Below, piece by piece: positions 42,273 through 58,854 of a DNA stretch of 64,000 nucleotides. A program made the translations under genes and the position numbers. Below the pieces are notes generated by a model that saw only the letters and a list, made by a program, of their open reading frames with translations, made no database searches and was not told the DNA's origin. This DNA comes from Eubacteriales bacterium (GTDB lineage Bacteria; Bacillota; Clostridia; Oscillospirales; QAKW01): positions 593 to 64,592 of the forward strand of contig JAZQET010000002.1 of NCBI GenBank assembly GCA_045539135.1, written 5' to 3'. The first letter of the stretch is position 1. Each line of letters starts with the position of its first letter.

Positions 42273-42348
42273 CTGCTGAAAGGAACCGGCATCGCTTTTG
42301 TGTGCACAAATGCAGTTAAGCAGTCTGACCCCACTTGCAACATAAATA

Positions 42349-42390
42349 AGAGAAGGAACAACCGATCTGTTGTTCCTTCTCTTTCTTTTT
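42349..42390 (+). terminator. Strong plus-strand intrinsic terminator
   Basis: 14-bp perfect stem agagaaggaacaac/gttgttccttctct, loop cgatct, then ttcttttt. Confidence 0.7.
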
Positions 42391-42570
42391 AGTGAAATAT
42401 TTTGCTGACGCAAAATGTGAAATAATTCTCTTCAAGAATTGTGAAATATTTGGGACTGCGCCCGAATGTGAAATGAAATAAATCCCGATACGCCGCAGCG
42501 TATTTCACATTGCGAAGCAATATTTCACATCCGTAGGATATTTCACAAATCCCCTGAGGGATTTATTTCG
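42391..42570. repeat. Array of GTGAAAT(A) motifs (4 direct, 3 inverted) alternating with seven different small hairpins
   Basis: gtgaaat(a/g) at 42392, 42417, 42441 and 42468. tatttcac at 42501, 42521 and 42539. Every interval holds its own 4-7-bp stem-loop, for example attttgc tgac gcaaaat and aattct cttca agaatt. Confidence 0.8.
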
Positions 42571-42619: not shown

Positions 42620-45600
42620 TTAGTTTACGATAAAGTAGAGATACTCTACCCGATCCGCAAAGGTATAGACCAAGCGATAGGTGCCCTCGGGGGCAGTATC
42701 ACTCAGGATCCAACTGTAAGGAACAGCGGCCCCGTCGGTCTGTGCCAATGCCTGATGCTCTTCGGTAAAGAGCGCGCCCAGATCCACCGATTCTGTGTAT
42801 GCGCCGTCTACCTTACGGTAGGCATCCACAGAAACAACGGCTTCATCATCGCCTGTCTGCTTGGTAGTGAGCGTAAACTGCAAGGCTTCGCTCTTATCCA
42901 ACAGCAGGTTGGTGGGACTGTTTTCGCAGTGAACCAGCAAATGATGTTCCTCTGCCACACCCAAGGTGAAGGAGGCTTCTCCAACCCTCGGCGTGAGAAT
43001 ACTGTTAAAGTATACCGGTTCAGGTGCCGAATAGACGGTCGCCTTCAGGGTCACCTTTCCGGTTACTCCCGTGATTCCGAAGAGATCGGTGTTCATGTTT
43101 ACGGTATGAGTACCGAAACCGTCCACACCCACCACAGCAAATTCATTGCTGCCATCGGGATAGTAGGTCACACCGTCGCACTCGAAGGTGATACCGTCGG
43201 GCAAATCCACAGGTGTTGCGCTATCATCCAGATACATCTGCAGTTTCAAAGCAAACTTACCTTCATAATAGCGGGTGTCGATTGCCACAATGCTCTCGGT
43301 AAGCACCACATCAAATTGAGAAGTACCCTTTGCGGGGAACACACCGGACTCACTTTCTGCATCATCTTCACCGTCTGCAGACTGGGTATCAAAGGTCATA
43401 GAGAATGCATCCAAGCCTTCCACCGTGGGATGGATGGCAAAGGTCAGTTCTTTTGCGGTAGACGCAATGTCATTCTCATCGGTATACTCCATGATTTCTT
43501 TACTGTTGTAAAGATGATTCACCTGCAGGGTTCCGTTATAAGGTGTTTCTGCATTATAACCGCTCCAAACAGATTCTGCCACCTGCTCAAAGTCACAAAC
43601 AAAGAGCAAACGTTCATTGACTACCTCGGATTCCTGCGCCTCATAAGCCTGCACAAAGGCGGGCTTTTCAGCCAACTGGGAAATAGGTTTCTCGGTACCC
43701 ATCTGCATAAAGTTCATAAGATCAACGGTCGCCTCGTTCCCCTTCTTAATGTAATAATAGAAGGTGGGAACGGTGCCGGTCAGATCTGCCATGGTGATCT
43801 TAGTGCCGATGGGCAAGGAAGAAATATTCAACGAAGTTACAAAGGTAGAGTCATTTATCTTGGGGAATGCACTGGGGATGTAGTTGGTCTGCACCTCCAC
43901 AGAGAAGGAGGAGTGCTCATTAATATGCAGCGCGGTCAGACCTGCAACACCCACATAATTCCGACGGTTTTCTGCAAAGATTGCCTGCTTGGGTACCATC
44001 CGACGAAGAGCCATTGTGGCGTTGATCACGTGGGTATGCGCCCCGTTTTCAATCGGTTGATAAACCTCTCCGTTGGTTGTCTGGAAGGCCTTCAGAGTGA
44101 GATTCACTTCCATTCCTTCGGTCCACTCGGTCACCGCATCGGAACGGTAAAGAATCACTTCCAAAACATTATTGGTGCCGTCGATCTTCTTGGTCAGAAG
44201 CGTATTGGTACTGATCTGGCTTGCGGCGCCGGCATCCTCTACCTGCACACCTTCCAGACCGGTTTTCACGGTGCCGTCCAACAGCGCCCACTTTTCACCG
44301 GACTTGGTAAGGAAACCGATACTCTCGCCCGACAGTTTGAACTCCACAGCGATGGCTTTGTTGGCCGTATTGGCCACTGCATCGGCAGAGGTCAGCAGAT
44401 CATAAGCATTTGCACCGGTCAACAGGGCCGCCAAAGTATCATTGACCGCCACCGACTCCAGCACATAATGCAGCGTTTGATCCGAAGTGGGATAAGCAAA
44501 AGCCACGCGGTCGGAATAATCCTGCTTATTGATGCCGATGTAACCGTCGATATTCAGGTCATACTGCACCTCATTACCGCTGATATACCAGTAATAATAG
44601 GAATAATCCGGCTCCCCTACCAATTTACCCACATTATCGATGACATCCATATAGCCATCGGCACTGCGGGCCATTGCGGAATAGGGAGTGGTACAGATGA
44701 AGTCACCGGTACTGCCTGTAATATCACCGTATACAAAGCCGCCGCCTTCACCGGGCACTGCGTTAAGCAGTTCCAAGGTATAAAGACCTGTTACAGGACC
44801 GTATACGCCGTTCTCATCGGCAACGGTCAGATATCTGCCGTTGGCGATACAAACGGTATTATAAGCAGTATGGTTATTTTTAAGTGTTACGTCATTATTG
44901 ATATACTCTGCGATTTCCGCATTAGACAGCTTCTCCACATTTTCCAACTGCCCTCCGTGACCGGTGTAGTTGTTATTCACATCGTTATAGCCTTTATCAA
45001 TAAAGGTGCGTTCCGGCTGATAATCGCTATGCAATGCGCCCAAGAACTTCACAAGGGAATCCAGCTTCACGGTGCTGCCCTCTTTCATATAGAGAGCGCC
45101 CACGCGGCTGATGGAATATTTTTCATAATCGCTGCTGTCCAGCGCGTCTTCCAAACCGATCAGCACCACATCGGAATTGATGAGGTTGACCGTATCGGCA
45201 CGCTGAATGGAATGGAGTGTTTTCAAGGTACTGCCGTCTGCACGGGGTTCTTCGCCGGTACCAAAGTTTTGGATATTAACCACACGGTTTCCTTCGGTAT
45301 TGCAAAGGTTGCCGTCGCCAAAGACGCCGCCTTGCTTAATGTAGATCTGCGTGGGAGTGGTGCGATTTTCCGCCGTGGTCTCACCGATGATGTTGACCTC
45401 TACATCGCCCACCGTGGTGGGAATGGAGGTATTCATGGTGTCGCCCTCACCGCGGTCGCCGCCGCCAAAGACCGAGCCATAAATGGCAATATCGGTATCG
45501 GCTACGGTAGCATCCACATTTACAGTAACGGCCTTTTGACCGACTTCTGCATACACACGGCTCTTTTCGCCGCCGCCGTACACACCGCCGACGCCGTTTT

Positions 45601-48600
45601 TACCTGCGATATAACCGCCGTAAATATTGGTTTCGGTGGAGCCGAACACCGCGCCCATTGAGGTTTGATAAGGCTCCGCCTGTGTGGGTTCACCGCGGCC
45701 GCCGCCGAAGACGGAGCCTGCGATGTAACCGTTTTTCACGGTCACCTTGGTCTTGCCCACTTCGGTGAGCTTGGCATTATTGGTACCAACGATCACCGTA
45801 CCGGCACCAACCGAACCGCGGTTGCCGCCGCCGTAGACACTTCCGCCCACAGAGCCGCCCTCACCATTGAGGGTGATCACCACATCGGTCTTACCGGAGG
45901 TGGGATCTACAGGATCATTTTCGTTTTCAGCAACGCTGAAGGAACGAGGCTGATCGATGGTTACATCGGTAGTACCGTGCACCAAAGATCGAACACCTTC
46001 ACCGCCGCCGTAGACACCGCCTTTGATCTGCGCATTTTCAGTGATCAACACTACCGTGTTTCCGACCTCTGCAACACGGGTATCCCCGCGGCCGCCGCCG
46101 TAAACGTTGGTATTGAGTTTGGAGTTTCCGCTGACCTTAATGGTGGAGGTACCGCCGACGTTGGCAATATCACCGCCTGCGTACGCAGATTTATTCAAGG
46201 AGCCGTTTTTAAACTCGATCAAGGTGTTGCCCTTTACATCGCCAAGAATACCGCCTCCGTAGAGGGTATGCTCCAAGGTGAATTTCTTGTTGCCAAACTC
46301 AGCAAGGTATTGATCTTGTGTATCGATCACAACATGGGTGTTTCCCACGGGTGCGGAAGCATAACGGCCGCCTGCATAGAGACACTCTTCAATATGAGAG
46401 TTATCCAAAACCTTTGAGGTTGCAGTGCCGTGAACAGCCGCATTTTCACCGCCGCCGAAGAAGGTACCGTTATAATTGGTGATCCCCTCCAAAACAAAGG
46501 AACTATCACCCAAGACCTCCGCCTTATAGCCGCCGCCGAATCCACGGCCGCCGTTTGGACGGTAATAACAGTTTCGAATCACAAAGTTGGTTGCACCGAC
46601 CGTTGCACCGGCAGCGCTTCCGCCGCCGAACATATAAACTGAACCGCCGGCAGAAGAAACACCGAAGCACCAATCTTCAAAAAGAAGGTTTGCGGTGCCG
46701 TTTACTTTACCGAGGTTACTGCCGCCATAGATGGCACGAGAGACTCCGCTCGAAACGCCAACAACAACATTGCGGTTTTCCCAATCATATGTTCTGCCGG
46801 AGGCATCGTGGACCACCACATTGGTATTCCCTTCCACCGTACCGCGATAGCCGCCGCCGAAAAGATACTTCAAGAGGACATCGGAAGGAATATAGTCCGT
46901 TTCCCCGATGGTCAAAACTTCCTCGGGATCGCCTTCAATGCGAACATTGGTATTTCCTTCCATTGCCTTGGTTTGAGGATTATCGATGATCGCACCGTCG
47001 TAACCGCCGCCGTAGACGGAGGACATCGTTCCGCCGATAACGGTCACGTTGGGCGAATAGACGTCTGAACCCTTTTGAAATCCGCCGCCGTAAATACTCT
47101 CGGTAAGAGCGGTGCCGATCTCATAAACCTCGGTGGTTCCTGTGGGTGCCAGATTTCCGCCGCCAAAAGCATCTAACAGGATCTTGCCGCCGAACAAATA
47201 CACCTTGGTATCCGACACGGCAGCTGTTTTTGCGTAACCGCCGCCAAATACACGGTTGTTCACCTGACCGCCGTTGATCGTTACCGTTGCAGTGGTTTGA
47301 ACAGGAGCTTCATTGCCGCCGCCGTAGACCGACTTAGCAACGGTTGCCTGCTCCACGGTGATAAAGGTTCTGTTTGCAACGGCTGCAGCATAGTAACCTC
47401 CGCCAAATGCATTTTCCTTAAGGGTTCCGTTATGAAGAACCACATTGGTATCTCCGCCTACGGTGCCGTATCTTCCGCCACCGTAGATATCCTTTTGAAA
47501 CGTACCGTTGTACAGATCCACATAGGTGTTTCCAACAACGCCGCCTTCATTTCCGGAGCCGTATACTTGGTTTTCGATGATCGGTGCAGTTTCGGCACTG
47601 CCGATGGTGATATAGGCATTGCCACCTACCGTGGCAGTATCATCGGAACCGCCGCCGTAAACCACCTCAACGGTCCCGTTCAGGATCTCCACATGGGTAT
47701 CCCCAAGGACATTTCCTTGGTGGCCGCCGCCGAAGGTATCACCAATAACGGAATGGACACCGTCGATCTTCAAATAGGTTGCATCCACCGTTGCAATCGG
47801 TGGACCTTTGAAACGACCGCCTGCCACCAAAAAGTCTCTTCCGGTGGTCACATTGTCCAAAACCTCTACATAAGTAGTTCCGTAAATACGATTAGAAGCA
47901 TTACCGCCGTATACGGTACGGAATTTACAAAGATTATCGGAATCTGTGCCCTGCAAGGTGAGGTAAACATCTCCGCGGATCACTGCATCGTTGCATCCGC
48001 CGTAAACATAGGTGCCGGCAATTGAACCGCCGCTATAGGTCTTTCTCATATCCAGATCGGTCAAGACCGTCTTAATATTTCCGTTCACAGGGGCAGAAGC
48101 ACCGCCTCCGAAAAGGTTTATACCGATGGTAAGACCGGAGACATCTAGTTCTTGCTCCGCCACCGTAACATAACCCATCTGACCGGTCAGGTTGTTGGTA
48201 ATGGCATCCTCGCCGGTACCGGTAACGACCGCGGTGCTTTCACTGCCGCCGCCGTGGAAGTTCTTCAAATAAGAAACCTTCGTTCCTTGGATGGTTCCGG
48301 TCAGATTGTTCACAATGTTTCCGTTCACAGCGCCACGGTAGCCGCCGCCGTAAAAAGTGATATCTCCGCCGATGGTGATCTTTCCTTCTGCATTGTAAAC
48401 ATCCCGAAGATTAAAGTTCGTTGCGTTATTGGTGATATTTCCGTTCACAATACCGTTGGATCCGCCGCCGTAGAAGTATTTAAATGTAATTCCGTCTAAG
48501 GTACTGGTTATATTGCCGTTGACCGTTGCTTTGGCAGAATGGCCGCCGCCATAGATGTTTTCGAAAGCATCCAAAGCATAGGCATCGGTGCCTTCCAAAA

Positions 48601-51600
48601 TATTCAGCACGATATTGCCGTGAACGATCGCATCAACAGGAGAATCATTTTCATCATCGGCATGGCCTTTACCGCCGCCGAAAACGGATTTCAGATCGCC
48701 GCCGGTGATATTAACGGTCACTGCGGTGTTGGCGTTATTCTCCGTACCGACCATAGCGGTAGAACAGCCGCCGTAGACACTGGCGTCAACTTTTCCTGCG
48801 TGAATATTCACTTCAGTGGTTTGGGTAACATCACCCTCAATACCGCCACCAAACAGATAATGGTTGATGATGGCATTGGGGTTATTAAGGGTCACAACGG
48901 TGCTGACATTGGTTGCGCCTTCCATACGGCCGCCGCCGTAAACGGAACGCTCGGTCTCTACCGCCGCACTGCCGTCGATCAAAACGGTGGAGCTTCCGGT
49001 AGCGCCGCTGTAGGCACCGCCGTAGATATTGCCGTCATTGGTATCATTGGCGGAAAAATCACCGTACCGACCGCTGCGAATATTCAAAACCGCTTCCTCG
49101 GTGGTAGATTGCATACCTGCGCCGTAGACCTCGCCGTAGACCTTAATATCGGCCCCGTCGATCACGGTCGTTGCCAAAGGAACCTTTGCGTCGTATTCAA
49201 AGGTCTGATTCTTATAAACATCATCACTATGGGTGTGAGAGCCTTTAATGCGGCCGCCGCCGTAAAGATCACGATGGAAAATACTGCTGCCGCCGATAGT
49301 ATTGGTAACGGTATCGCCGACTTTTCCGTAAAAGCCGCCGCCATAATAATGAGCATCAAAATCGCATTGACCCGCCACCGTTGTGGTAACATTTTCCGTT
49401 ACATCGGCAAAATAACCGCCGCCATAGAAACGGGATGCCAGATCATCTGCCACATCGGTATCTTTAATGGTAACATTGGTCAAGGACCAAATCACATTGC
49501 CAACAGTAGCAGAAGGATAAAATCCGCCGCCGTACACCGAAACAGGCTTACTTCCGTCACCGATCACGCAGTCGAGCAAGGTGATGTTTGCAGTTCCTGC
49601 CACCGCGCCGTAACGACCGCCGCCAAACAAAACATTGCGGCTACCCTCTTGCACGGTGCTTTCTCCGGTATAATGACCGATAGAAATCTTCTTGTCCCCG
49701 TTTGATACATCGCGGATGAAAATATTCGTATTTCCGCCGACATCGGCACCTTGACCGCTTCCGCCACCTCGAATGTTCAATACACTCATATCGGTAGCTT
49801 GCGGATCAAGAGCATCCATTTTAAGATTGGTATCTCCTGTAACTGCTCCGCCGCCGGGACCACCGCCGGCATAGAGGGTACCCACGAAGCCGCCGTAGAT
49901 CTGAACATCGGTTGCCGCAACAGAGCCGGAATAACCGCCACCGTAAACAGCATTATAAGAACCGCCGTAGATATTCACATCGGGGATGCCTGCATAATCC
50001 ACAGCACGGGATCCGCCGAAAAGTTGACTTGTCACAGAAGTACCGTCGTATCCGTTTACGGTAATTTTTCCCCCAATAGTACCGCCTGAATGGGAACCCC
50101 CGTAAACGGCTGCACTCTGAACCCCGTTCAGATTAAGGGTCACATTTCCCGTAATGGAACCGCCGGTATGATTACCGCCGCAAATATCGGTCCCCACAGA
50201 GCCACCGTTGACATTCACCAAAATATCGCCGCCCACATTGCCTGAAAAACAACCGCCAAACAATCGGACATCAATAGTATAGTTTGTTACATTTAATGTG
50301 ATGTCGCCGCCTACCGAGCCGGAATAACAGCCGCCCCGAAGCTCTTCGTCAATTTTAACGGTTTCACCTGTGGTATTATTCAGTGTCAAGTTCACCGAAC
50401 CGGTCACCGAACCGTCGTGACCGCCGCCGAAGACAGCGCCGTTATTGCTGCTGGAAAGGAGCACATTGGTATTCAGGATCGAAACATTGGTATTTCCGTT
50501 TACCGTAGCCGAAGCAGTACTTCCGCCGCCGTAAACTCCGTTTACAGTAGAGTTTTCAACGGAAACATCGGTACCGTTGACGGTTCCTGCATAGCATCCG
50601 CCGTAAACTACTCCCACCGTACTGTTGGAGATATTCAGATCGGGAATGCCGTTAAAGCTACCGGAATCACCGCCGCCGTAAACATTACCGACGGTGGAGT
50701 TCTCCGAAATATCCACGGTAATGGCTGTGCCGACCGTATAACCCGACTGATGGCATCCGCCGTACACATTACTTGTTTTGGATCCGCCATTGATGGTCAC
50801 CTGCGCACTGCCGGTTACGGAAGCGTAGTTACCGCCGCCGTATATACGCTCAGCGGTACTGCCGTTTGTAACCGTAACAGTAGCAGAGCCCCCAACGGTT
50901 GCGTCATAATTGGTTTTATCGATCAAGCCGCATCCACCGCCGTATACACGGTTTACCGTTGCGCCGTCGATGGTCACAGAGGTATTTCCGCCGACCGTGC
51001 CGCCATATCCGCCGCCGTAAGTACTACCGGTAACCTTGCCGCCGCTGACGGTGATCAGTGTATCATTGGTTACAGAGGCATTTCTTCCGCCGCCGTAAAG
51101 GGCTCCGACCGTGCCGCCGGAAACGGTCACAGAAGTAGCATTTACGGTTGCATCATATGTGGCAACAACATCCCCTGTTTGGGAAGCAAGGGTTGCGGTG
51201 GTTTTTCGCTGACCGCCGCCGCAAAGATTGGCAACGGAGCCGCTCAGCACTTTAATACTTGTATTCCCCGATACGGGCGCATCATAACCGCCGCCGTAAA
51301 GGGTGCCTGTGATGGTTGCGCCGTTCACGGTAATATCGGTACCCTGAACCGAAGCGGAATATGTAACGATCTTTTTATTCGCTTTATCACCGTCCTGATA
51401 CTGACCGTTATAGGTACCGCCGCCGTATACATTTTTCAAGGTGCCGCCGTTCAACACCAATTTCGGTGTTCCTGCATACGCAGAATAGCGAAGAGCTGCA
51501 TAAAGAGTGTCGTCAAGGGTTCCGCCGTTGATGGTTACCAAAATTGCGCCGGACGTTGTTCCGCTTGATCCACCGCCAAAAAAGACGCCGGTCACTTTGC

Positions 51601-53530
51601 CGCCGTTCATTGTGGTGGTGCTGTTTCCGCCGATAACGCGGCCGGCGGTCATATTTCCGCCGTAATATTGACGAAGAGTTCCGCCATTAATGGTGACGGT
51701 CACATTCCCGTCAACCCCGCCATAACTACGAGCACCGACATATACATCACGCAGGTTGGTTCGCGGACCGTCAATGGTCATTGTTACATTCTTTTGAACG
51801 GTGTTATTGCCCGCACCCCAAACGTTATTATTGTTGTCGATGGTGGGGTATCTGTATCTTGTGTTATAGAACTCAATGGAAACATCACCGTTTACCGTTC
51901 CGTTTCCGTCGCCTGCGCCGTAAAACTGTCTTGCATAGATGGCATTGCGCATCACTATGTTGATATCACCGGTAAAGGTCGTCTTTCCGGAAGGACCGCC
52001 GTAAACGTCCTCAAAATACGGAACCGCGGGGTCATAACCATAGGTGGTTTCGGTGTCGGTAAAGACATCCTCTACCAACGCTCCGGAGGTCAAAACATAA
52101 GAATTGGGAGTCTCAAAAGAGGTTGTAACATCTTTTTGCCCCAAAATGTAAACATTTCTGCTTCCGGTCACCGTGCCGCCGTAACCGCCGGAATACAAAT
52201 TGATGATGGTTCCGCCGGTGACATAGATGTCAAAGGTTCCGATGCGGGACACGGAGTTCACGCTTCCGCCATAGACGATTCCGTTTACATAGATGTTTCG
52301 GCCAAAGCGCCAAACCTGATTATGCTCTTCCGCCTCATTATCGGAGTGGCGGGCGGAAATTTCGGTATAAAGACCGCCGTTGACCACCGCATGATCGGTG
52401 GTGACCAACCGCAGGGTGCGGATCGCATGGGTGCGATACTTGGGCACACTTTGGTTCATCCGTGCGGTAAAATCGCAATAATAGGGGTTCTCGGTTACCG
52501 CATCCAAGGAATATGCATAACCGATGACTTCGCCGAATTGAGTTTCAGCGGTTGTGTCATAATTACTCTCGTTCACCTTATATTGCCAATTGGGATGGGT
52601 ATTTTCAAAGTGCAGGAAATTTACATTATCATAGCGGATGTTACCGAAAATAACGGAGGTACCCGTAGCTCCGGTATTGTTCGGCTTGAAGTTGAAATTA
52701 AATGCAGTATTCCCCAAGCTCTTGAAGGTGGCAGAGGTAAACACAGGAGAAGCCGGATCCGTTGTGCCACCGCTATAGCCGAAATACTTGGAAGAAACGT
52801 TGGTTTCTTTCACATAGTCAAGGTCGCCGGTGAGCATCACAACATAGGCATACGCATCGGAATGATCCTGATTATTATTGGCAGCACGAATCTTTTCAAA
52901 AACGGCATCCACAGAAGCCAAAGGCTCTGCCGCGATCAGACCGGTATAGGAATCGGATGCGCCGGTTTCACCGGTGCTGTTGGCGGTATCCACGGGGAAC
53001 CCGCTGTTATTGGTGTAATTATACACCATGGTGGTGTAAGGATTGCGAATAAAGTAACATTGACCCCAAAGAGCCTTTAGGGTCAGAGTATAGTTTCCAT
53101 CGCTTCCGCCGAGGAATGCTTCCAATACATCGAAGGTGATGGCGTCGCCCGGCTGGAAAACGGTCTCGCCGGGGATTTTTTCGGTAACATCATTATGAAC
53201 GATCTGCCAGCCGGTAAAGGAATAGGACTTTCCATCTACCGTGAAGGTCTCGGCATCGAGCCCGCCACTAACGGTAGGACGCAGATCGGGCAACACAATA
53301 CATTCGGAAGAGTTTACTGTTACCGATTGGGCATCGGAGGTGACGCTGACACCGGCAGTTCCCGCAGGCAGAGTGCCCACTGAATAGGTGATCTGAACGG
53401 TATCCCCCTCTTTGATATCAAGCGCGGCGCTGACACCGCCGATCATCATCAGGGCGCAAACAAGCAACACCAGTGCCGCCAAGGCGCCGATGCCGGTCCA
53501 TATTCGTTTTTTAGCCGTATATTTGCTCAT
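42620..53530 (-). CDS. Giant (3636 aa) secreted or surface protein built mainly of degenerate Y/F-GGG repeats, predicted to form a beta-helix
   Basis: Uninterrupted 10.9-kb ORF. ATG 53530 follows GGAGGAG. N-terminal signal/anchor KKRIWTGIGALAALVLLVCALMMIGGVSAAL. A Listeria-Bacteroides-repeat-like block (YSFTGWQI...LKALWG). By eye I count roughly 40 exact [YF]GGG motifs, plus YGG[CSNA]/YAGG variants, spaced about 20-25 aa apart between about nt 45450 and 51600. A non-repetitive tail of about 950 aa follows, with no LPXTG. Confidence 0.85.
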   Translation of the reverse strand: MSKYTAKKRIWTGIGALAALVLLVCALMMIGGVSAALDIKEGDTVQITYSVGTLPAGTAGVSVTSDAQSVTVNSSECIVLPDLRPTVSGGLDAETFTVDGKSYSFTGWQIVHNDVTEKIPGETVFQPGDAITFDVLEAFLGGSDGNYTLTLKALWGQCYFIRNPYTTMVYNYTNNSGFPVDTANSTGETGASDSYTGLIAAEPLASVDAVFEKIRAANNNQDHSDAYAYVVMLTGDLDYVKETNVSSKYFGYSGGTTDPASPVFTSATFKSLGNTAFNFNFKPNNTGATGTSVIFGNIRYDNVNFLHFENTHPNWQYKVNESNYDTTAETQFGEVIGYAYSLDAVTENPYYCDFTARMNQSVPKYRTHAIRTLRLVTTDHAVVNGGLYTEISARHSDNEAEEHNQVWRFGRNIYVNGIVYGGSVNSVSRIGTFDIYVTGGTIINLYSGGYGGTVTGSRNVYILGQKDVTTSFETPNSYVLTSGALVEDVFTDTETTYGYDPAVPYFEDVYGGPSGKTTFTGDINIVMRNAIYARQFYGAGDGNGTVNGDVSIEFYNTRYRYPTIDNNNNVWGAGNNTVQKNVTMTIDGPRTNLRDVYVGARSYGGVDGNVTVTINGGTLRQYYGGNMTAGRVIGGNSTTTMNGGKVTGVFFGGGSSGTTSGAILVTINGGTLDDTLYAALRYSAYAGTPKLVLNGGTLKNVYGGGTYNGQYQDGDKANKKIVTYSASVQGTDITVNGATITGTLYGGGYDAPVSGNTSIKVLSGSVANLCGGGQRKTTATLASQTGDVVATYDATVNATSVTVSGGTVGALYGGGRNASVTNDTLITVSGGKVTGSTYGGGYGGTVGGNTSVTIDGATVNRVYGGGCGLIDKTNYDATVGGSATVTVTNGSTAERIYGGGNYASVTGSAQVTINGGSKTSNVYGGCHQSGYTVGTAITVDISENSTVGNVYGGGDSGSFNGIPDLNISNSTVGVVYGGCYAGTVNGTDVSVENSTVNGVYGGGSTASATVNGNTNVSILNTNVLLSSSNNGAVFGGGHDGSVTGSVNLTLNNTTGETVKIDEELRGGCYSGSVGGDITLNVTNYTIDVRLFGGCFSGNVGGDILVNVNGGSVGTDICGGNHTGGSITGNVTLNLNGVQSAAVYGGSHSGGTIGGKITVNGYDGTSVTSQLFGGSRAVDYAGIPDVNIYGGSYNAVYGGGYSGSVAATDVQIYGGFVGTLYAGGGPGGGAVTGDTNLKMDALDPQATDMSVLNIRGGGSGQGADVGGNTNIFIRDVSNGDKKISIGHYTGESTVQEGSRNVLFGGGRYGAVAGTANITLLDCVIGDGSKPVSVYGGGFYPSATVGNVIWSLTNVTIKDTDVADDLASRFYGGGYFADVTENVTTTVAGQCDFDAHYYGGGFYGKVGDTVTNTIGGSSIFHRDLYGGGRIKGSHTHSDDVYKNQTFEYDAKVPLATTVIDGADIKVYGEVYGAGMQSTTEEAVLNIRSGRYGDFSANDTNDGNIYGGAYSGATGSSTVLIDGSAAVETERSVYGGGRMEGATNVSTVVTLNNPNAIINHYLFGGGIEGDVTQTTEVNIHAGKVDASVYGGCSTAMVGTENNANTAVTVNITGGDLKSVFGGGKGHADDENDSPVDAIVHGNIVLNILEGTDAYALDAFENIYGGGHSAKATVNGNITSTLDGITFKYFYGGGSNGIVNGNITNNATNFNLRDVYNAEGKITIGGDITFYGGGYRGAVNGNIVNNLTGTIQGTKVSYLKNFHGGGSESTAVVTGTGEDAITNNLTGQMGYVTVAEQELDVSGLTIGINLFGGGASAPVNGNIKTVLTDLDMRKTYSGGSIAGTYVYGGCNDAVIRGDVYLTLQGTDSDNLCKFRTVYGGNASNRIYGTTYVEVLDNVTTGRDFLVAGGRFKGPPIATVDATYLKIDGVHSVIGDTFGGGHQGNVLGDTHVEILNGTVEVVYGGGSDDTATVGGNAYITIGSAETAPIIENQVYGSGNEGGVVGNTYVDLYNGTFQKDIYGGGRYGTVGGDTNVVLHNGTLKENAFGGGYYAAAVANRTFITVEQATVAKSVYGGGNEAPVQTTATVTINGGQVNNRVFGGGYAKTAAVSDTKVYLFGGKILLDAFGGGNLAPTGTTEVYEIGTALTESIYGGGFQKGSDVYSPNVTVIGGTMSSVYGGGYDGAIIDNPQTKAMEGNTNVRIEGDPEEVLTIGETDYIPSDVLLKYLFGGGYRGTVEGNTNVVVHDASGRTYDWENRNVVVGVSSGVSRAIYGGSNLGKVNGTANLLFEDWCFGVSSAGGSVYMFGGGSAAGATVGATNFVIRNCYYRPNGGRGFGGGYKAEVLGDSSFVLEGITNYNGTFFGGGENAAVHGTATSKVLDNSHIEECLYAGGRYASAPVGNTHVVIDTQDQYLAEFGNKKFTLEHTLYGGGILGDVKGNTLIEFKNGSLNKSAYAGGDIANVGGTSTIKVSGNSKLNTNVYGGGRGDTRVAEVGNTVVLITENAQIKGGVYGGGEGVRSLVHGTTDVTIDQPRSFSVAENENDPVDPTSGKTDVVITLNGEGGSVGGSVYGGGNRGSVGAGTVIVGTNNAKLTEVGKTKVTVKNGYIAGSVFGGGRGEPTQAEPYQTSMGAVFGSTETNIYGGYIAGKNGVGGVYGGGEKSRVYAEVGQKAVTVNVDATVADTDIAIYGSVFGGGDRGEGDTMNTSIPTTVGDVEVNIIGETTAENRTTPTQIYIKQGGVFGDGNLCNTEGNRVVNIQNFGTGEEPRADGSTLKTLHSIQRADTVNLINSDVVLIGLEDALDSSDYEKYSISRVGALYMKEGSTVKLDSLVKFLGALHSDYQPERTFIDKGYNDVNNNYTGHGGQLENVEKLSNAEIAEYINNDVTLKNNHTAYNTVCIANGRYLTVADENGVYGPVTGLYTLELLNAVPGEGGGFVYGDITGSTGDFICTTPYSAMARSADGYMDVIDNVGKLVGEPDYSYYYWYISGNEVQYDLNIDGYIGINKQDYSDRVAFAYPTSDQTLHYVLESVAVNDTLAALLTGANAYDLLTSADAVANTANKAIAVEFKLSGESIGFLTKSGEKWALLDGTVKTGLEGVQVEDAGAASQISTNTLLTKKIDGTNNVLEVILYRSDAVTEWTEGMEVNLTLKAFQTTNGEVYQPIENGAHTHVINATMALRRMVPKQAIFAENRRNYVGVAGLTALHINEHSSFSVEVQTNYIPSAFPKINDSTFVTSLNISSLPIGTKITMADLTGTVPTFYYYIKKGNEATVDLMNFMQMGTEKPISQLAEKPAFVQAYEAQESEVVNERLLFVCDFEQVAESVWSGYNAETPYNGTLQVNHLYNSKEIMEYTDENDIASTAKELTFAIHPTVEGLDAFSMTFDTQSADGEDDAESESGVFPAKGTSQFDVVLTESIVAIDTRYYEGKFALKLQMYLDDSATPVDLPDGITFECDGVTYYPDGSNEFAVVGVDGFGTHTVNMNTDLFGITGVTGKVTLKATVYSAPEPVYFNSILTPRVGEASFTLGVAEEHHLLVHCENSPTNLLLDKSEALQFTLTTKQTGDDEAVVSVDAYRKVDGAYTESVDLGALFTEEHQALAQTDGAAVPYSWILSDTAPEGTYRLVYTFADRVEYLYFIVN

Positions 53531-53557
53531 GGAGCTCCTCCGTTTGGGGTAATTCCT

Positions 53558-54472
53558 TTAATAATTTGCGTGTTCCTTGATCGCAACGGTATAAACGCCG
53601 CCGCTCTCCTCTGCCACCAATTCGCCCACGGTGGAATAATCCTTGGTGGGATCGGCTTTGAAGAAATAGATCAAAATACTTTCATTTTCTTCCATAGGCT
53701 GGGTGGTGGTGGCTTGGTTCAAAAAGCCGCTGTTGGGATCATTGGTGGTGAGCACCAAGGAACCGTCTAAAATATGCTTACTGTTGGTATCCACCTGCAG
53801 CAGATTGCTTCCGCTGTTGACTGCAGACCAATCCAGTTTCAGATTTCCCGCATTGATGGTTTCCGATGCCATCACGATGAGGGTGGCATAGGTACCGCCC
53901 ACCTGATCTTCCACCCGATAGACCACAGGCTCAGGCTGACCGTGGAGCACAAAGTGAAGCTTCATTTCCTTTACATAGGGGTTGGTGGACTTCACGGTGG
54001 CGGTCACGGTGGTATTGCCTCTTAAGGCGGCATAGCCCACCGGCAGATTAACGGTATAGCCATTGATGGCTTTCGCACCTTTGGAAAGGGTATAAGAACC
54101 GGCGGAGCCTGCAGAAAAGCTATAGCCGCTGTAATCATTCCGATCGCAGGAAAGGGAAACGGTATAGCTCACATCCTTTTCATTGATCCGCAGGTCATCG
54201 AAGTAATTCTGCACCTGAAAAGAGAGGGATTTTGCCTCCCCGCCATAGAGATGGATCTCTTTGGAAAGATCTTTCTTCTCTTGGGTATCGCCCAAAAGAT
54301 CCACGGTGAAGTAAAAATCATCGGCAAGTACCTGACTCTGCACAGAAGCAAAATCTCTGATGTACTTTGCCCCCACCCCGATGATGGTGCCAAGCAACAC
54401 CACCGCAAGGCAGATGGCGACCAAAAGGATCACCTTGCGCCTATTCAATTTTGGCATCACAATTTCTTTCAT
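53558..54472 (-). CDS. Secreted protein with a TasA/camelysin-like (SipW-type) signal-peptide end; putative fibre or accessory subunit C
   Basis: N-terminus KLNRRKVILLVAICLAVVLLGTIIGVGAKYIRDFAS. Beta-rich body. 27 nt upstream of the giant gene. Start is uncertain: ATG 54472 or 54457, with TTG 54481 in the track. Confidence 0.6.
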   Translation of the reverse strand: MKEIVMPKLNRRKVILLVAICLAVVLLGTIIGVGAKYIRDFASVQSQVLADDFYFTVDLLGDTQEKKDLSKEIHLYGGEAKSLSFQVQNYFDDLRINEKDVSYTVSLSCDRNDYSGYSFSAGSAGSYTLSKGAKAINGYTVNLPVGYAALRGNTTVTATVKSTNPYVKEMKLHFVLHGQPEPVVYRVEDQVGGTYATLIVMASETINAGNLKLDWSAVNSGSNLLQVDTNSKHILDGSLVLTTNDPNSGFLNQATTTQPMEENESILIYFFKADPTKDYSTVGELVAEESGGVYTVAIKEHANY

Positions 54473-54473
54473 A

Positions 54474-55013
54474 TCAATCAATCTGCTCGCAACGAATCTT
54501 CAAAATAATGCCGTCTACCTGACGGTTATAAGTAAATGCACGGTTTTCCTCTTGGGAAACATCCCACTTCACAGTGAGATCAAAGGTCTTTGCGGTATCA
54601 TTGGGCGGAAGGGCAAAGGAAACGGTTTTATTGACATTGTCCACCTGAGCATCCAGCCCATCGCAAGCCCAAGAATAAAGCAAAGGCAAATTCTCGGTGG
54701 ATTCGGTGCTGAAGGTGCACCTTACTGCCACCTCGCTTTGGTTGGTCAGCACCACCGCGCCTTCTCTTTCCGCTACGGTAACGGCGGCATTCTCATTATC
54801 TACCTGAGGATCCAACCCGATGGCAAAGGCATGCTGAAAGTCCTGCCCCGATTCGGTGATGTCGAATTTTGCCACCCGCGCAGAGTCTCCTGCGCCTCCG
54901 TGGGTCACATAGCGGGCATAAAGACCGCCCATCAGGGTGCCGCTTACTAAGATCAAAAAGATCAGCACAACCAATGTAATATACAATGGATCTGCTCTTC
55001 TTTTGGTTTTCAT
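54474..55013 (-). CDS. Secreted protein with a TasA/camelysin-like signal-peptide end; putative fibre subunit B
   Basis: LVSGTLMGGLYARYVTHGGAGDSARVAKFDIT shares the motif G[TL][FY]A[KR]YVT..DSARVA[EK][WF] with 56781-57530. Both proteins end in QID. RBS is aaggggg. Confidence 0.65.
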   Translation of the reverse strand: MKTKRRADPLYITLVVLIFLILVSGTLMGGLYARYVTHGGAGDSARVAKFDITESGQDFQHAFAIGLDPQVDNENAAVTVAEREGAVVLTNQSEVAVRCTFSTESTENLPLLYSWACDGLDAQVDNVNKTVSFALPPNDTAKTFDLTVKWDVSQEENRAFTYNRQVDGIILKIRCEQID

Positions 55014-55029
55014 CGGCTGTGCCCCCTTT

Positions 55030-55683
55030 CTACTCTTTCATCTCGTTTTTATATTCCTGCTCCATCCGCTCCAGATCTTCCATAGTGACATCTAAATCGG
55101 TGTGAAGCCGGGTCTCCGCACGCAAGACGCGGATCTCTTCTTTGATCTTTTCCAGATCGGTATCGTCGCTCTTTTTCTCTTTCTGATAAGAGAATTCCAA
55201 AAACAGCAGGGCAAGCCCCAAAATGCAGATGACGCCGATGGGATTTTGCACCACACGGGTCACCGCGCCCACAAAGGGGATGGCAACCAGCAGCTTGCCT
55301 TTAATGGCGGTGAGGGGTACCGGATCATCGGGAGCATTATTGGCATCCCCTTGAGTAATGGCGGTTTCCCCCTCCAATTGAATGATTCGATGGATCACCA
55401 AGCTGCTGCCGCTTTGGTAAACCACCACATCTCCCTCTTGAAATTCTTCCGCTTCCCGAATGATCACCAGATCATCCACCGAAAGCTCCGGTTCCATACT
55501 GCCGGAGAGCACCACCGCCACGCCATAGCCGAAGGGCATAGGCAGGGCATTGCCCGCCACGCGGGCGGCGTTCCAAGAAAAGAGACCAACACCTGCAATG
55601 ACTGCCGCCACCGCTAAAAGGAGGATGCGGAAAATCGCCCGTCCGATCTTATTCTTCTTTGCTTTCTTCGGACTCTTCGCCAT
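55030..55683 (-). CDS. Signal peptidase I, ER/archaeal type (SipW-like), copy 2
   Basis: Catalytic Ser box VLSGSMEP, His box LVIHRI, and GDANNAPD. N-terminal and C-terminal TM helices plus a charged coiled tail. Confidence 0.85.
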   Translation of the reverse strand: MAKSPKKAKKNKIGRAIFRILLLAVAAVIAGVGLFSWNAARVAGNALPMPFGYGVAVVLSGSMEPELSVDDLVIIREAEEFQEGDVVVYQSGSSLVIHRIIQLEGETAITQGDANNAPDDPVPLTAIKGKLLVAIPFVGAVTRVVQNPIGVICILGLALLFLEFSYQKEKKSDDTDLEKIKEEIRVLRAETRLHTDLDVTMEDLERMEQEYKNEMKE

Positions 55684-56560
55684 CCGGCTCTTCTCCCTTC
55701 TTCTTGATGCGGGGTAAGATCAGCAGAACCACCAGCAATGCCAAAGCAATGGCGGCAACTGCGATCATCATGGTCAGGTTGGTATCGTCGCCGGTATCGG
55801 GACCCTCTGCGGGAATATCGGCTTCTGCGCGGGTACGGATGATCACCGTCATGGTGATATCCCGCTCCACCGCAAGATCGCCCAGCATCGTATCATAGAC
55901 ATCGGCTTCGGCACCGCCGCTTTCAAAGGGCCATTCCCATTCCAAGGAGTAGATGGCATTGGTATAGGCCGCCAAGGTGGCGGAATCGGAAACCGAATTC
56001 AAAACAGAAGCGTGCTCCATCTTCTCGGCATCGCCGCAAAGATAGCCGCCGTTATAATCCTTCATCCGTACATTGACCGGCAAGCGCAGATCGGGATCGG
56101 AAAAGACCACCTCGGTGCTCATGGTATAGTCCAAGGGGACATTTCCCGTGTTTTTCAAGGTAAAGGAATAGGTGTTGGCGGTACCGGGGGCGATCACCTT
56201 ATCGTCGCCACCGTCCACCGTTACCTGCTGTTCCCCGTTTTCATAAGAAATCTTGAAGATCTCCACAGGGGTCTCTGCCACCCAAATGCCTTTATCGTCT
56301 ACCACCTCAAAACCGGGGTTAAAGGTCTTGCGGTAAAAGGACTCATTGCCGGTGGGGGCACCTGCGGTGCTCTCTCCCCCATTGCTTGGATTCTCCTCTC
56401 CCGTTTCCTCAAAGGTGAGCACAATGGCGGGAAGATCCGGCTGTACCGACCGTGTGAGGCGGTAAAAGAGAATGGCAGAAGTCACAATAAAACAAAGAGA
56501 CAATACAAAGCAAAGGCCCTTTAACATCGAATGGATCTTCTTCAAAGAGGCTTTTTTCAC
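55649..56560 (-). CDS. Bitopic surface protein with a TasA-like core and a C-terminal sorting-signal-like anchor
   Basis: GTG start 56560 follows GGAAGGAG. N-terminal TM. IAPGTANTYSFTLKNTGNVPLDY block. The WEWPFE motif is shared with 56781-57530. The C-terminus is GPDTGDD plus a TM, then RIKKKGEE and an acidic tail ending SKEE. Confidence 0.65.
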   Translation of the reverse strand: MKKASLKKIHSMLKGLCFVLSLCFIVTSAILFYRLTRSVQPDLPAIVLTFEETGEENPSNGGESTAGAPTGNESFYRKTFNPGFEVVDDKGIWVAETPVEIFKISYENGEQQVTVDGGDDKVIAPGTANTYSFTLKNTGNVPLDYTMSTEVVFSDPDLRLPVNVRMKDYNGGYLCGDAEKMEHASVLNSVSDSATLAAYTNAIYSLEWEWPFESGGAEADVYDTMLGDLAVERDITMTVIIRTRAEADIPAEGPDTGDDTNLTMMIAVAAIALALLVVLLILPRIKKKGEEPDGEESEESKEE

Positions 56561-56692
56561 TTTATATCATCTCCTTCCTGCTTGGAACAAATAAAAAAAC
56601 GCATTTTTCTTGAATTTTATCTTTCTTTTATAAACACAAAAAACTTTTTTCAGAAAAACGCACCAATTCCAAGGAACTCACGCGCTTTGCTG

Positions 56693-56734
56693 AAAAAAGT
56701 ATAGCAGTCGGCCGGCCACGTTCGGCCGACTGCT
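56693..56734 (-). terminator. Intrinsic terminator immediately after putative major subunit A
   Basis: 12-bp GC-rich stem agcagtcggccg/cggccgactgct, followed on the minus strand by atactttttt. Confidence 0.75.
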
Positions 56735-56780
56735 TGTTCGTTATACTTTGACTTTTACTTATTAGATGGGTAAGTAAAAA

Positions 56781-57530
56781 TTAGTCGATCTGAGTGATGG
56801 TAGCGGTGATGGTCAGAGCAACGGTTGCAGCGCCACTATTGTCATCGGGATTAGCAGCAGCATTACCCAAAGCGGTATCCTTTGCGTCGTTAGCAGCGAT
56901 TTCGTCTGCATTTGCACCAACTTCAAAGGGCCATTCCCAAGAAACCTGAACGTCATTGTTTACAGCAGACAGGTCCTGATTGGTGTGATAACGAGCAGCC
57001 TTTGCAACGATAGCAGCCTCAACAGCCTCTTCAAACTCAGTTGCAGAAGCATAAGTCGCACCGTCGAAAACTTCAGCAGGAGTTGCACCCTCACCATCAT
57101 CAATAGTGATTACCAAGGGGCAATAGTATGCACCCTCAACAGTCCATTTTTGCAGATCCAGATCAGCAACATAGGTAACCTGAGTATCTACTTCAGGAGT
57201 ACCAGTAACATTCAAAGCGGCCAAAGAACCCTTGGTGCCGGGAGCAACGATGTTGGTATTATCAGCTTTAGCCTGAACAGTAATAGTATCTACATCTTCA
57301 TCAACAACATAAGCAGTAGCAGCGTTGCCGGATACCTTATCTTGATAAGAATCACCAAACATAACGCCGGTAGCTTCGATGGTAACACCCCATTCAGCAA
57401 CGCGAGCGCTGTCGGTAGCAGCAGGGCCTTTGGTCACATACTTAGCGAAAGTTCCGCTGATCATGCAGGTGGACAAAAGGGTCAGAACGAGAACAACACA
57501 AGCGGCTCTCATAATTACGTTTTTCTTCAT
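56781..57530 (-). CDS. Secreted protein with a TasA/camelysin-like signal-peptide end; putative major fibre subunit A
   Basis: N-terminus MKKNVIMRAACVVLVLTLLSTCMISGTFAKYVT..DSARVAEWGV (compare camelysin GGTFAYFSD). IVAPGTKGS block, WEWPFE, C-terminal QID. Strong AAGGAG RBS and its own terminator. Confidence 0.7.
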   Translation of the reverse strand: MKKNVIMRAACVVLVLTLLSTCMISGTFAKYVTKGPAATDSARVAEWGVTIEATGVMFGDSYQDKVSGNAATAYVVDEDVDTITVQAKADNTNIVAPGTKGSLAALNVTGTPEVDTQVTYVADLDLQKWTVEGAYYCPLVITIDDGEGATPAEVFDGATYASATEFEEAVEAAIVAKAARYHTNQDLSAVNNDVQVSWEWPFEVGANADEIAANDAKDTALGNAAANPDDNSGAATVALTITATITQID

Positions 57531-57723
57531 AGTGAAAAACTCCTTTCATTTTATGCGTGCATTTTGCCCTGCACGCGGGAGCAATTTTTTGCGCGAAATC
57601 ATCGCGCCCGATAAGATCCCATCACGGGGGAAAACTAAACCGGGCATCTCGCCCATCCGCGGAGACACCGCGGTTTATATTCATCCCCGGCGTGGCTCCG
57701 TGGGATCAATACCTTGATTTGTT

Positions 57724-57898
57724 GAGTAGAGCAAAAGCAATTTGAGCCTGTTTTGATCGGCACATTTCCGCTCGCTCTACGTTAAAATGCTTGTGAATAC
57801 ACAAAGTATTCACTGCGCTTTATGCCTTGATCGAGCAAAAATCTGCTCGATCAAAATCCACTTACAAGAGACAGGCACAAATTGCTCTTGCTCTACTC
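57724..57898. repeat. 28-bp imperfect inverted repeat bracketing a 119-bp segment in the sipW-to-subunit-A spacer
   Basis: gagtagagcaaaagcaatttgagcctgt (57724-57751) against acaggcacaaattgctcttgctctactc (57871-57898), 26 of 28 complementary. The interior holds the hairpins gtgaatac acaaa gtattcac and ttgatcgagca aaaat ctgctcgatcaa. Confidence 0.8.
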
Positions 57899-57937
57899 GG
57901 AGCGTGATTATTTATGCTCGCTCTACGATCATTGAGT

Positions 57938-58609
57938 TCACTCTTCTTTAGAGGACTCTGCGCCCACAGCGGCGGCTTCTTTTTCTGCCTGCGCGGCTTT
58001 CAGGGCTTCCAGCTCCGCCAGAAGAGCATCGGTATCTTGCTTGCTTGCCTTTTCAAAAGCCTTACGGCGGAGAATATCATAGCCAATCAACAGCAACAAG
58101 GGAACCACCACGCAAACGATCAAACCGTGGGTGGTTTGCATAAACATGGCAACGCTGCCCATTGCAGGGATCCGCATTTGATAAACGCCGATCAAATTCT
58201 CGGCAGGAACCGGCATTTCATCGGGAGCATTATTGGCATCACCTTGAGTGATGAATGCAAGCGCACCCTCCACCTCGGTGATCTCCATCACTCTATGGGT
58301 AACCACCGCATCGGTCTTACTGGCGGGGTCATAGAAGGTGATCACATCTTTAACTGCCACATCATCGGCATCTATGCTCTTGGTGATGATCAGGTCGCCG
58401 CTCTTGATCTGGGGATACATAGAATCGGTCAACACGATCATGGGCGCATAGCCGTTAATGGAAGGAACGCTGTCGGGATTTACATAGCTCTTCACAATAA
58501 GAGTTACATTCATCGCCAGCATAGGGATCAAAATCACACAAAGGATGATGCCCACAACGGTCCATACCTTATGCATGGCAGAGGTCTTTTTCTTTTGTTT
58601 TACATCCAT
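57938..58609 (-). CDS. Signal peptidase I, ER/archaeal type (SipW-like), copy 1
   Basis: ATG 58609 follows GGAGAG. Ser box VLTDSMYP, His box VVTHRV, and GDANNAPD. A C-terminal TM plus an Ala/Glu-rich tail ending SSKEE. Confidence 0.85.
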   Translation of the reverse strand: MDVKQKKKTSAMHKVWTVVGIILCVILIPMLAMNVTLIVKSYVNPDSVPSINGYAPMIVLTDSMYPQIKSGDLIITKSIDADDVAVKDVITFYDPASKTDAVVTHRVMEITEVEGALAFITQGDANNAPDEMPVPAENLIGVYQMRIPAMGSVAMFMQTTHGLIVCVVVPLLLLIGYDILRRKAFEKASKQDTDALLAELEALKAAQAEKEAAAVGAESSKEE

Positions 58610-58810
58610 CTTCTTCTCTCCTACGAAAACTTTTTTGCCGATAAAGGGAACATTCTCCTTATAAACTAAGGAGAATGAAAAAGGGTACCCTTTTTCGCGC
58701 AAAGACTTTAATACATAATAATGTTAACATATTGTTTTTATTTTTGCAAGGGGACTTGTGATATTTTCCAAAACATTTTGTAAGTGTTCACTAACATTTG
58801 ATAATTTTCA

Positions 58811-58854
58811 ACAAAAAGCAATTACCGAAAGGGGGAAAACCCTTTCGGTAATTG
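58811..58854 (-). terminator. Intrinsic terminator of the AGCS gene
   Basis: 15-bp stem caattaccgaaaggg/ccctttcggtaattg, then ctttttgt on the minus strand. Confidence 0.8.

Follow-up and report, generated by a model that had tools for sequence, protein, structure and literature searches.

A two-peptidase cassette of gut Clostridia, with four paralogous secreted proteins and a giant cargo protein, as candidate locus for a wall-anchored surface fibre

In Bacillus subtilis, the tapA-sipW-tasA operon has the gene of an endoplasmic reticulum (ER)-type signal peptidase beside that of a fibre subunit (TasA fibres, PDB 8AUR). In Clostridium perfringens, sipW-bsaA-bsaB-bsaC combines a Clostridial SipW with two paralogous subunits and, downstream of them, a large secreted protein. 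The BsaA system has been proposed to assemble by donor-strand exchange, and the BsaA preprint reports that members of the family often lie beside LPXTG proteins, sortases and several paralogs. The haloarchaeal Tafi loci bring together a dedicated type I signal peptidase (SPase I), major and minor pilins, a variable tip protein and an anchor consisting of a membrane segment and a jelly-roll domain, and bacterial AbpX loci, which belong to the TasA superfamily, carry LPXTG anchors and sortases. Here we describe a locus comparable to these in a 64,000-nucleotide (nt) stretch of DNA of a Eubacteriales bacterium (contig JAZQET010000002.1), the whole of which is called the window below. The locus is a cassette of fixed order in which two SipW-like peptidases accompany four secreted beta-sandwich proteins that are paralogs of one another, and these are followed by a large secreted protein that has no anchor. 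We put at about 60% the probability that it encodes a cell-wall-anchored surface fibre needing dedicated signal peptidases.

The locus consists of seven co-directional minus-strand open reading frames (ORFs) within 42620-58702 of the window. The initial annotation had counted eight genes, because the spacer had been entered as an item of its list. Protein lengths are in amino acids (aa), and the features are as follows:

57938-58702, minus strand: SP1, a SipW-like archaeal/ER-type signal peptidase I; the longest ORF has 254 aa from a TTG
57531-57937, minus strand: structured spacer of 407 nt, which is also the 5' leader of the p249 gene
56781-57530, minus strand: p249, 249 aa, candidate major fibre subunit
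56703-56734, minus strand: GC-rich hairpin plus T-run resembling an intrinsic terminator, after the p249 gene
55649-56560, minus strand: p303, 303 aa, subunit paralog with an apparent sortase sorting signal
55030-55683, minus strand: SP2, the second SipW-like signal peptidase I
54474-55013, minus strand: p179, 179 aa, putative minor subunit or adaptor
53558-54481, minus strand: p307, ORF of 307 aa (304 aa from ATG 54472), putative larger subunit of adaptor type
42620-53530, minus strand: the giant, a secreted protein of 3636 aa
42497-42573, minus strand: Gut-1 RNA (Rfam RF01706), directly 3' of the stop codon of the giant gene

The likely start of SP1 is ATG 58609, giving 223 aa, which is the start used by gene callers on conspecific contigs. 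The p303 and SP2 genes overlap by 35 nt, gaps of 16 nt and 27 nt separate SP2 from p179 and p307 from the giant, and the gap between p179 and p307 is 1 nt if p307 starts at ATG 54472. These spacings and the 407-nt spacer were given correctly by the initial annotation, and the motifs that it quoted (SGSMEP, TDSMYP, xHRx, GDANNAPD, GTFAKYVT, GLYARYVT, GAKYIRD and IGGVSAALD) can all be read in the translations. The upstream limit of the locus is a terminator (58819-58854) that belongs to a Na:alanine symporter gene, and the downstream limit is formed by a bidirectional terminator hairpin (42348-42383) and a convergent DUF5050 gene.

Compared with tapA-sipW-tasA, the locus shares the placing of ER-type signal peptidase genes beside those of candidate fibre subunits, signal peptides that end as in TasA with glycine, threonine, an aromatic residue and alanine (N-terminal donor-strand assembly being presumed), and a wall-associated accessory paralog, which is TapA there and p303 here. 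It differs in having two peptidases, a covalent anchor of the sortase-substrate type and four paralogs plus a giant cargo, and its mature domains, unlike TasA, have neither detectable PF12389 homology nor a significant Foldseek match. The likeness to the BsaA locus lies in the Clostridial SipW, the subunit paralogs and the large secreted protein encoded downstream, whereas a second peptidase, a PxTG anchor subunit and adaptor subunits are found here and the von Willebrand factor A (vWA) protein is not. The parallel with Tafi loci extends to the whole layout (dedicated SPase I, major and minor subunits, variable tip protein, anchor), but Tafi subunits are exported by the twin-arginine translocation (Tat) pathway and belong to a different sequence family, while export here is of the general secretory (Sec) type. 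The AbpX peptidase has ten membrane helices and those of the window two each; and, in contrast to both Tafi and AbpX loci, a second catalytic peptidase stands here in place of the DUF5305 accessory protein and the cargo reaches 3636 aa. More remotely, the proposed arrangement recalls SpaA-type pili in its layout of shaft, base, adaptors and tip adhesin with a sortase-anchored base, and the Fim/Pap chaperone-usher pili in its donor-strand logic and matched pairs of adaptor and adhesin. Unlike SpaA-type pilins, the p249 family has no LPXTG or pilin motif, and the cassette in the window includes no sortase; unlike Fim/Pap, there is no chaperone or usher, and processing would be by ER-type signal peptidases.

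The cassette is well supported as a conserved system, although its mechanism is unproven. Species-representative genomes scanned with a p249 profile gave at least 544 confirmed relatives among at least 599 pattern matches, from Oscillospiraceae, Acutalibacteraceae, Lachnospiraceae, Ruminococcus, Frisingicoccus, Mogibacterium and others, and 80 related loci were retrieved for the analysis of synteny. A check of these neighbourhoods for the dual SipW, as the initial annotation had suggested, found one gene order in nearly all of the 80: SP1, p249, p303, SP2, p179, an optional second small protein, and a large protein (about 740 to more than 2300 aa). The cassette is conserved, present in hundreds of species of gut Clostridia and apparently unstudied. 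The earlier remark that a described system of this architecture is not known has to be qualified, as the system is widespread and has parallels in the Tafi and AbpX/BsaA loci, yet a literature search found no paper describing this Clostridial cassette with its two peptidases.

Both peptidases are of the archaeal/ER type, as initially annotated. They pass the curated cutoff of TIGR02228 (51.85 bits) with 107.7 bits for SP1 and 85.4 bits for SP2, and keep the catalytic boxes (TDSMYP, THRV and GDANNAPD in SP1; SGSMEP, IHRI and GDANNAPD in SP2). Neither reached the LepB-type model TIGR02227 (25.9 and 32.2 bits, cutoff 47) or the Bacillus SipW equivalog NF046067 (102.6 and 63.6 bits, cutoff 190); judged by these models, both are SipW-like enzymes and not SipW orthologs. 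At least 90% of the 73 SP1 and 67 SP2 orthologs in the related loci retain the Ser (DSM), His (HR) and GD.N..D boxes, and because this conservation is family-wide both peptidases are probably active. SP1 has one membrane helix towards each terminus, the C-terminal one being followed by a helical tail in the cytoplasm. The two enzymes share 32% identity (BLASTP E 7e-20) and fall into two separate orthologous groups with fixed positions in the cassette across families of Clostridia, which argues that they are, as had been supposed, dedicated peptidases and not housekeeping ones. Most likely they split the substrates, for example AKY-type subunits on the one hand and anchor or cargo on the other, and such a division is the simplest idea for the reason behind having two. 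The p303 family carries a different conserved motif, S-R-[LI]-x-x-[FY], after its N-terminal helix.

At least three subunit paralogs had been proposed initially; comparison of families from the related loci with hhalign links four (probabilities of 92-99.8%). The p249 family aligns with p179 over the full length (99.8%) and with p303 (99.6%), and p307 aligns in its N-terminal part with p179 (96%) and p249 (92.6%). The signal segments of p249, p179 and p307 end in G-x-[FY]-A-[KR]-Y. Cleavage is predicted between SGTFA and KYVT in p249, and between GGLYA and RYVT in p179, where DSARVAKF follows; p307 has an AKY-type signal end (GAKYIRD) and then an FYFT..LL motif. The A[KR]Y motif is present in 84 of 89, 45 of 53 and all 18 members of the three families, and in the p249 and p179 families the signal end is followed by a near-invariant D-x-A-R-V-A-K-[FW], which in p249 takes the form D-x-ARVA-[KE]-[WF]-GV. 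At the C-terminus, p249 ends in TQID (TQ[IV]D in the family) and p179 in EQID. The p249 family is large, with more than 2718 clusters at 90% identity; the best 120 clusters listed have no Pfam domain, and the few that are named are called hypothetical. No record in the contig index matched p249 exactly, and the cluster look-ups returned no names.

The AlphaFold2 model of p249 is a beta-sandwich with a predicted local distance difference test score (pLDDT) of 87 and a predicted template modelling score (pTM) of 0.76; confidence is lowest at residues 21-40 (block means 55-71), and there is no secondary structure at 24-48. That of p179 is a minimal beta-sandwich (pLDDT 71) in which residues 32-59 score below 50. 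Subunits that assemble by donor strand are marked by a conserved, unstructured N-terminal extension beside a sandwich, and this is what the models of p249 and p179 predict for their monomers. In some of the related loci, two to four p249 paralogs stand in tandem after SP1 (L007 1667-4807; L001 9179-10699), which suggests variant shaft subunits.

The initial annotation had proposed SipW-dependent processing of TasA-like subunits. The signal-peptide ends agree with the SipW site of TasA in the family consensus and in hhalign, where SGTFAKY aligns with GGTWAAF of a 37-sequence TasA profile (probability 26-53%). Homology of the mature domains to TasA/CalY was detected neither by Pfam nor by profile-profile comparison nor by Foldseek on two models. 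None of the four small proteins has a Pfam match at E <= 0.1 (PF12389 included), an NCBIfam match or a PDB sequence match; p249, the p249 profile and the giant gave nothing when searched by sequence against PDB chains; and TIGR04088, a short NCBIfam model, reported no hit for the window proteins. The structural comparison with TasA that had been proposed was run with the p249 and p179 models and produced no significant match, TasA being absent from the Foldseek top 50 and no pilin matching significantly either. Since the profile match is limited to the signal peptide and Foldseek gave no significant match, membership in TasA/CalY is not established. The one tie to the superfamily runs through a further paralog of about 190 aa, called trail, which occurs in other cassettes and is absent from the window. 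Trail proteins hit the NCBIfam BsaA model TIGR04090 at E 3e-8 to 1.5e-7, with scores of 31-33 bits that stay below the cutoff of 60, and their family aligns with the TasA profile over the signal peptide and some 50 mature residues (81% hhalign probability). As trail matches the BsaA model and also aligns with the p179 family (hhalign 95%), the window subunits are probably very distant members of the BsaA/TasA superfamily, by evidence that is transitive and sub-threshold.

The p303 protein had been described as merely bitopic, which missed that its C-terminal segment looks like a Clostridial sortase sorting signal of the PxTG type. It reads G-PDTG-D (aa 253-258), after which come a membrane helix and RIKKK. 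The LPXTG_anchor model TIGR01167 scores aa 254-288 at 15.9 bits, which is exactly its cutoff. The pattern [ASIVLP]-P-x-T-G-[DY] occurs within the last 75 residues of 50 of the 74 p303 orthologs, and most of the ortholog tails listed appear, by eye and uncounted, to continue after PxTG with hydrophobic and then basic residues. The AKY/ARVAKF N-terminal motif is absent from p303. In two related loci (L042 and L072), the gene immediately after the cassette encodes a PF04203 sortase.

The signal peptide of the giant ends in IGGVSA, with predicted cleavage before ALDIK at an ordinary AXA-type site. A non-repeat region of about 400 aa is followed, at aa 420-2690, by repeats of 25-28 aa with the consensus x-V-Y-G-G-G-x-x-G-x-V-x-G-N-T-x-V-T-I-x-G-G, of which there are about 55 strict YGGG-type motifs (residues 420-2688, modal spacing 25-28 residues) and roughly 55-85 repeats in all; the C-terminal non-repeat region has about 940 aa and ends in YLYFIVN. 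From its periodicity, the repeat region (about 2300 residues) is probably a long beta-solenoid rod of some 80 coils. No Pfam, NCBIfam or PDB match was obtained with the whole protein or with five segments of it, and it has no cell-wall or membrane anchor. A search of 1.84 billion proteins with the last 1137 residues gave 189 representative relatives, 72 of them at E <= 1e-30 and most of them 2400-5300 aa long, and the C-terminal region resembles the C-termini of large proteins in other cassettes. The strand opposite the giant gene contains plus-strand ORFs of up to 968 aa (42755-53080), which we read as shadow ORFs arising from the Gly/Thr/Val-rich composition of the repeats, not as genes.

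The initial annotation had treated this giant as part of the system itself. What stands is that a large secreted protein devoid of an anchor always comes after the subunit genes; the YGGG giant is lineage-specific cargo, not core. Its homologs were found in only four of the related loci (L005, L012, L015 and L064), the large proteins of other cassettes having Listeria-Bacteroides repeat, DUF7601/DUF5979/SpaA, or DUF285/leucine-rich repeat (LRR) domains, and among the 41 large proteins that are complete, not one carries a sorting signal or has a membrane helix at its end. The large protein is exchangeable cargo. Three types of cassette can be told apart. In type A, the large protein ends in WSWRY...WLNGNS, is always followed by trail and is never preceded by p307 (26 of 26). 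In type B, p307 always precedes, trail never follows, and the large protein lacks the type A ending (7 of 7); several large proteins of this type and the giant of the window have GTYRL...YFIV-like endings (by eye), and the window is therefore placed in type B. In type C, comprising four loci, the large protein itself starts with an AKY-type N-terminus. From the co-variation of adaptor and C-terminal type together with the type C fusion we infer that the cargo may be physically coupled to the fibre via a matched adaptor, and these two observations are the main evidence for such a coupling.

The spacer between SP1 and p249 is highly structured (minimum free energy -175 kcal/mol, z = -11.2 vs shuffled controls). 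A terminator-like site lies in the p249-p303 gap (median 163 nt) in 33 of 68 related loci, and, unlike this long gap, the junctions of p303 with SP2 and of SP2 with p179 overlap and abut, respectively, in the related loci. The terminator after the p249 gene probably attenuates transcription and sets subunit stoichiometry. Strain variation was studied in four conspecific contigs (L081-L084). Identity to the window is 92-99% for SP1, 97-98% for p303, 99-100% for SP2, 97-99% for p179 and 99% for p307; p249 is about 50% identical in three of the contigs, its first 33 residues being identical, and the first 830 or so residues of the giant (window 51000-53530) show 72% identity in two. Among the cassette genes, hypervariability is confined to p249 and the giant N-terminus, and that allelic replacement is limited to these two proteins fits their being the exposed and abundant parts.

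The same spacer contains a 28-nt inverted repeat (57724-57751 and 57871-57898, 119 nt between the arms) that is 93% complementary and unique in the window. We considered it as an invertible switch and rejected the idea, as there was no evidence of inversion: three conspecific contigs have it in the orientation of the window, a 116-nt deletion removes one arm in the fourth, and junction patterns for both orientations are absent from JGI metagenome contigs. The closest other species lack it. A different, short inverted repeat, TTATTTATCCCTC, with arms 92-106 nt apart, is present in the SP1-p249 spacers of L043, L045, L076 and L077 and may be a regulatory site. Among 22 related loci scanned for RNA elements, three have a c-di-GMP-I riboswitch (RF01051, 50-67 bits) directly upstream of SP1 (L021 8893-8985, L026 8882-8973 and L041 8872-8964), all in one sub-lineage of the cassette, and hence at least one cassette lineage is tied to the control of adhesion or biofilm. 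The scan gave no such riboswitch in the window or in the remaining 19 loci, and Rfam found no riboswitch in the leader of the window. The Gut-1 RNA behind the giant gene scored 72.1 bits (gathering score 50, E 5.5e-13) and was not found in any of the 22 loci; a second, sub-threshold copy of 46 bits lies on the plus strand at 42390-42479, beside the 42348-42383 hairpin. A glycine riboswitch was seen in L015 (7173-7265) before a 520-aa gene just upstream of SP1, which by its position looks like the counterpart of the Na:alanine symporter gene of the window (58879-60414).

A wall-anchored fibre could be built from these components as follows. SipW cuts TasA after GTWA; by analogy, the subunits would be exported by Sec and cut after G-x-[FY]-A by SP1, SP2 or both. 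Cleavage would free an N-terminal extension, K/R-Y-V-T ... D-S-A-R-V-A-K-F, that is predicted to be unstructured in the monomer and could, as a donor strand, complete the sandwich of the following subunit in the manner of TasA, BsaA, Tafi and chaperone-usher pili. The abundant shaft subunit would be p249, whose gene has a leader and a terminator to itself and whose sequence is hypervariable between strains. The base would be p303, which lacks the donor motif and whose PxTG would be linked to peptidoglycan by a sortase encoded elsewhere. Low-copy adaptors would be provided by p179 and p307, the latter linking the C-terminal domain of the giant with the fibre, and the repeat rod of the giant would act as the distal adhesin.

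Several points weigh against such a fibre. The evidence for it comes from genes and predicted models, and it is by inference that cleavage sites were assigned, tasks divided between SP1 and SP2 and the subunits put in order. The window proteins match neither TIGR04088 nor TIGR04090 (E <= 0.1) nor PF12389, and the hhalign alignments of the subunit families to TasA stop at the signal peptide, leaving the mature domains unaligned. Foldseek searches of PDB with the p249 and p179 models gave nothing at E <= 0.001; the best E-values of the two were 0.098 and 0.067, and AbpA with a template modelling (TM) score of only 0.31 and CanA at only E 0.22 are at noise level. The signal peptide of the giant (VSA-A) could be cleaved by any type I peptidase, and the 64-kb window contains no sortase signature. 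Finally, neither hmmsearch nor hhalign found similarity between the C-termini of the giant and other large proteins and the subunit families, for which reason an acceptor domain in the giant C-terminus is unproven.

Part of this evidence would also suit a biofilm-matrix fibre of the TasA/BsaA type made of the small proteins, with the large protein merely co-regulated and acting, like BsaC, as an independent soluble or loosely bound adhesin or enzyme. The operon logic is that of sipW-bsaA-bsaB-bsaC, which ends in a large vWA protein; the AXA-type site of the giant and the large-protein C-termini, for which no homology to the subunits was found, are what an independent protein would have, and the c-di-GMP riboswitch of some loci suits a matrix operon. 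However, a subunit with a covalent cell-wall anchor suits a pilus better than a shed matrix, adaptor and large-protein C-terminus are matched in type without exception, an AKY-type N-terminus is fused to the large protein in four loci, and no large protein is self-anchored, though many have cell-surface adhesin domains. On balance we consider a matrix fibre with an independent large protein unlikely.

We regard as quite improbable that the small proteins do not polymerise at all and form, with the peptidases, an apparatus for the export, maturation or wall attachment of giant adhesins, such as a short wall-spanning stalk or chaperones. The constant tie of the cassette to one very large cargo protein, the co-variation of adaptor and cargo, and the failure of both subunit models to match a known pilin significantly would be accounted for. 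Against this, p249 has the looks of an abundant, exposed, structural protein (own leader and terminator, allelic replacement, tandem copies), and the conserved disordered N-terminal extension of several paralogs is the signature of a donor strand. That SP1 and SP2 are general housekeeping type I signal peptidases lying beside surface-protein genes by chance is rejected because synteny is conserved, and has hardly any probability left, for although a view of 64 kb does not allow other SPase I genes of the genome to be counted, both enzymes are of the ER/archaeal and not the LepB type and form two orthologous groups with fixed cassette positions across Clostridia families.

Beyond the wall-anchored fibre as such, we tentatively propose, the odds being somewhat against all of it holding together, that the cassette represents an unrecognised and widespread class of Gram-positive pilus in gut Clostridia. 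Five features would define it jointly. Its donor-strand shaft would be built from a subunit family outside the recognisable TasA/CalY models; its paired, specialised ER-type signal peptidases would have distinct substrate sets; a paralog that accepts a strand and donates none would be fixed to peptidoglycan by sortase; giant tip adhesins, including YGGG beta-solenoids of 2400-5300 residues, would be interchangeable via matched adaptors; and the invariant Lys of AKY, an invariant Glu and the C-terminal Gln-x-Asp might lock the subunits covalently, as proposed for BsaA.

Gut anaerobes owe the way in which they colonise mucus, fibre particles and one another to their surface fibres and adhesins, and to our knowledge almost nothing is known of such structures in Oscillospiraceae, Acutalibacteraceae and many Lachnospiraceae. 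The cassette is present in at least several hundred species-level genomes, and all its small proteins are unannotated. If the model of a wall-anchored fibre is right, it would provide a third route to a Gram-positive pilus, in which donor strands released by signal peptidases are combined with a sortase anchor; it would give a testable reason for the presence of two SipW-like enzymes, and would amount to a plug-in system for the display of giant adhesins. The hypervariability between strains marks the shaft subunit and the N-terminus of the giant as likely targets of host immunity or phages.

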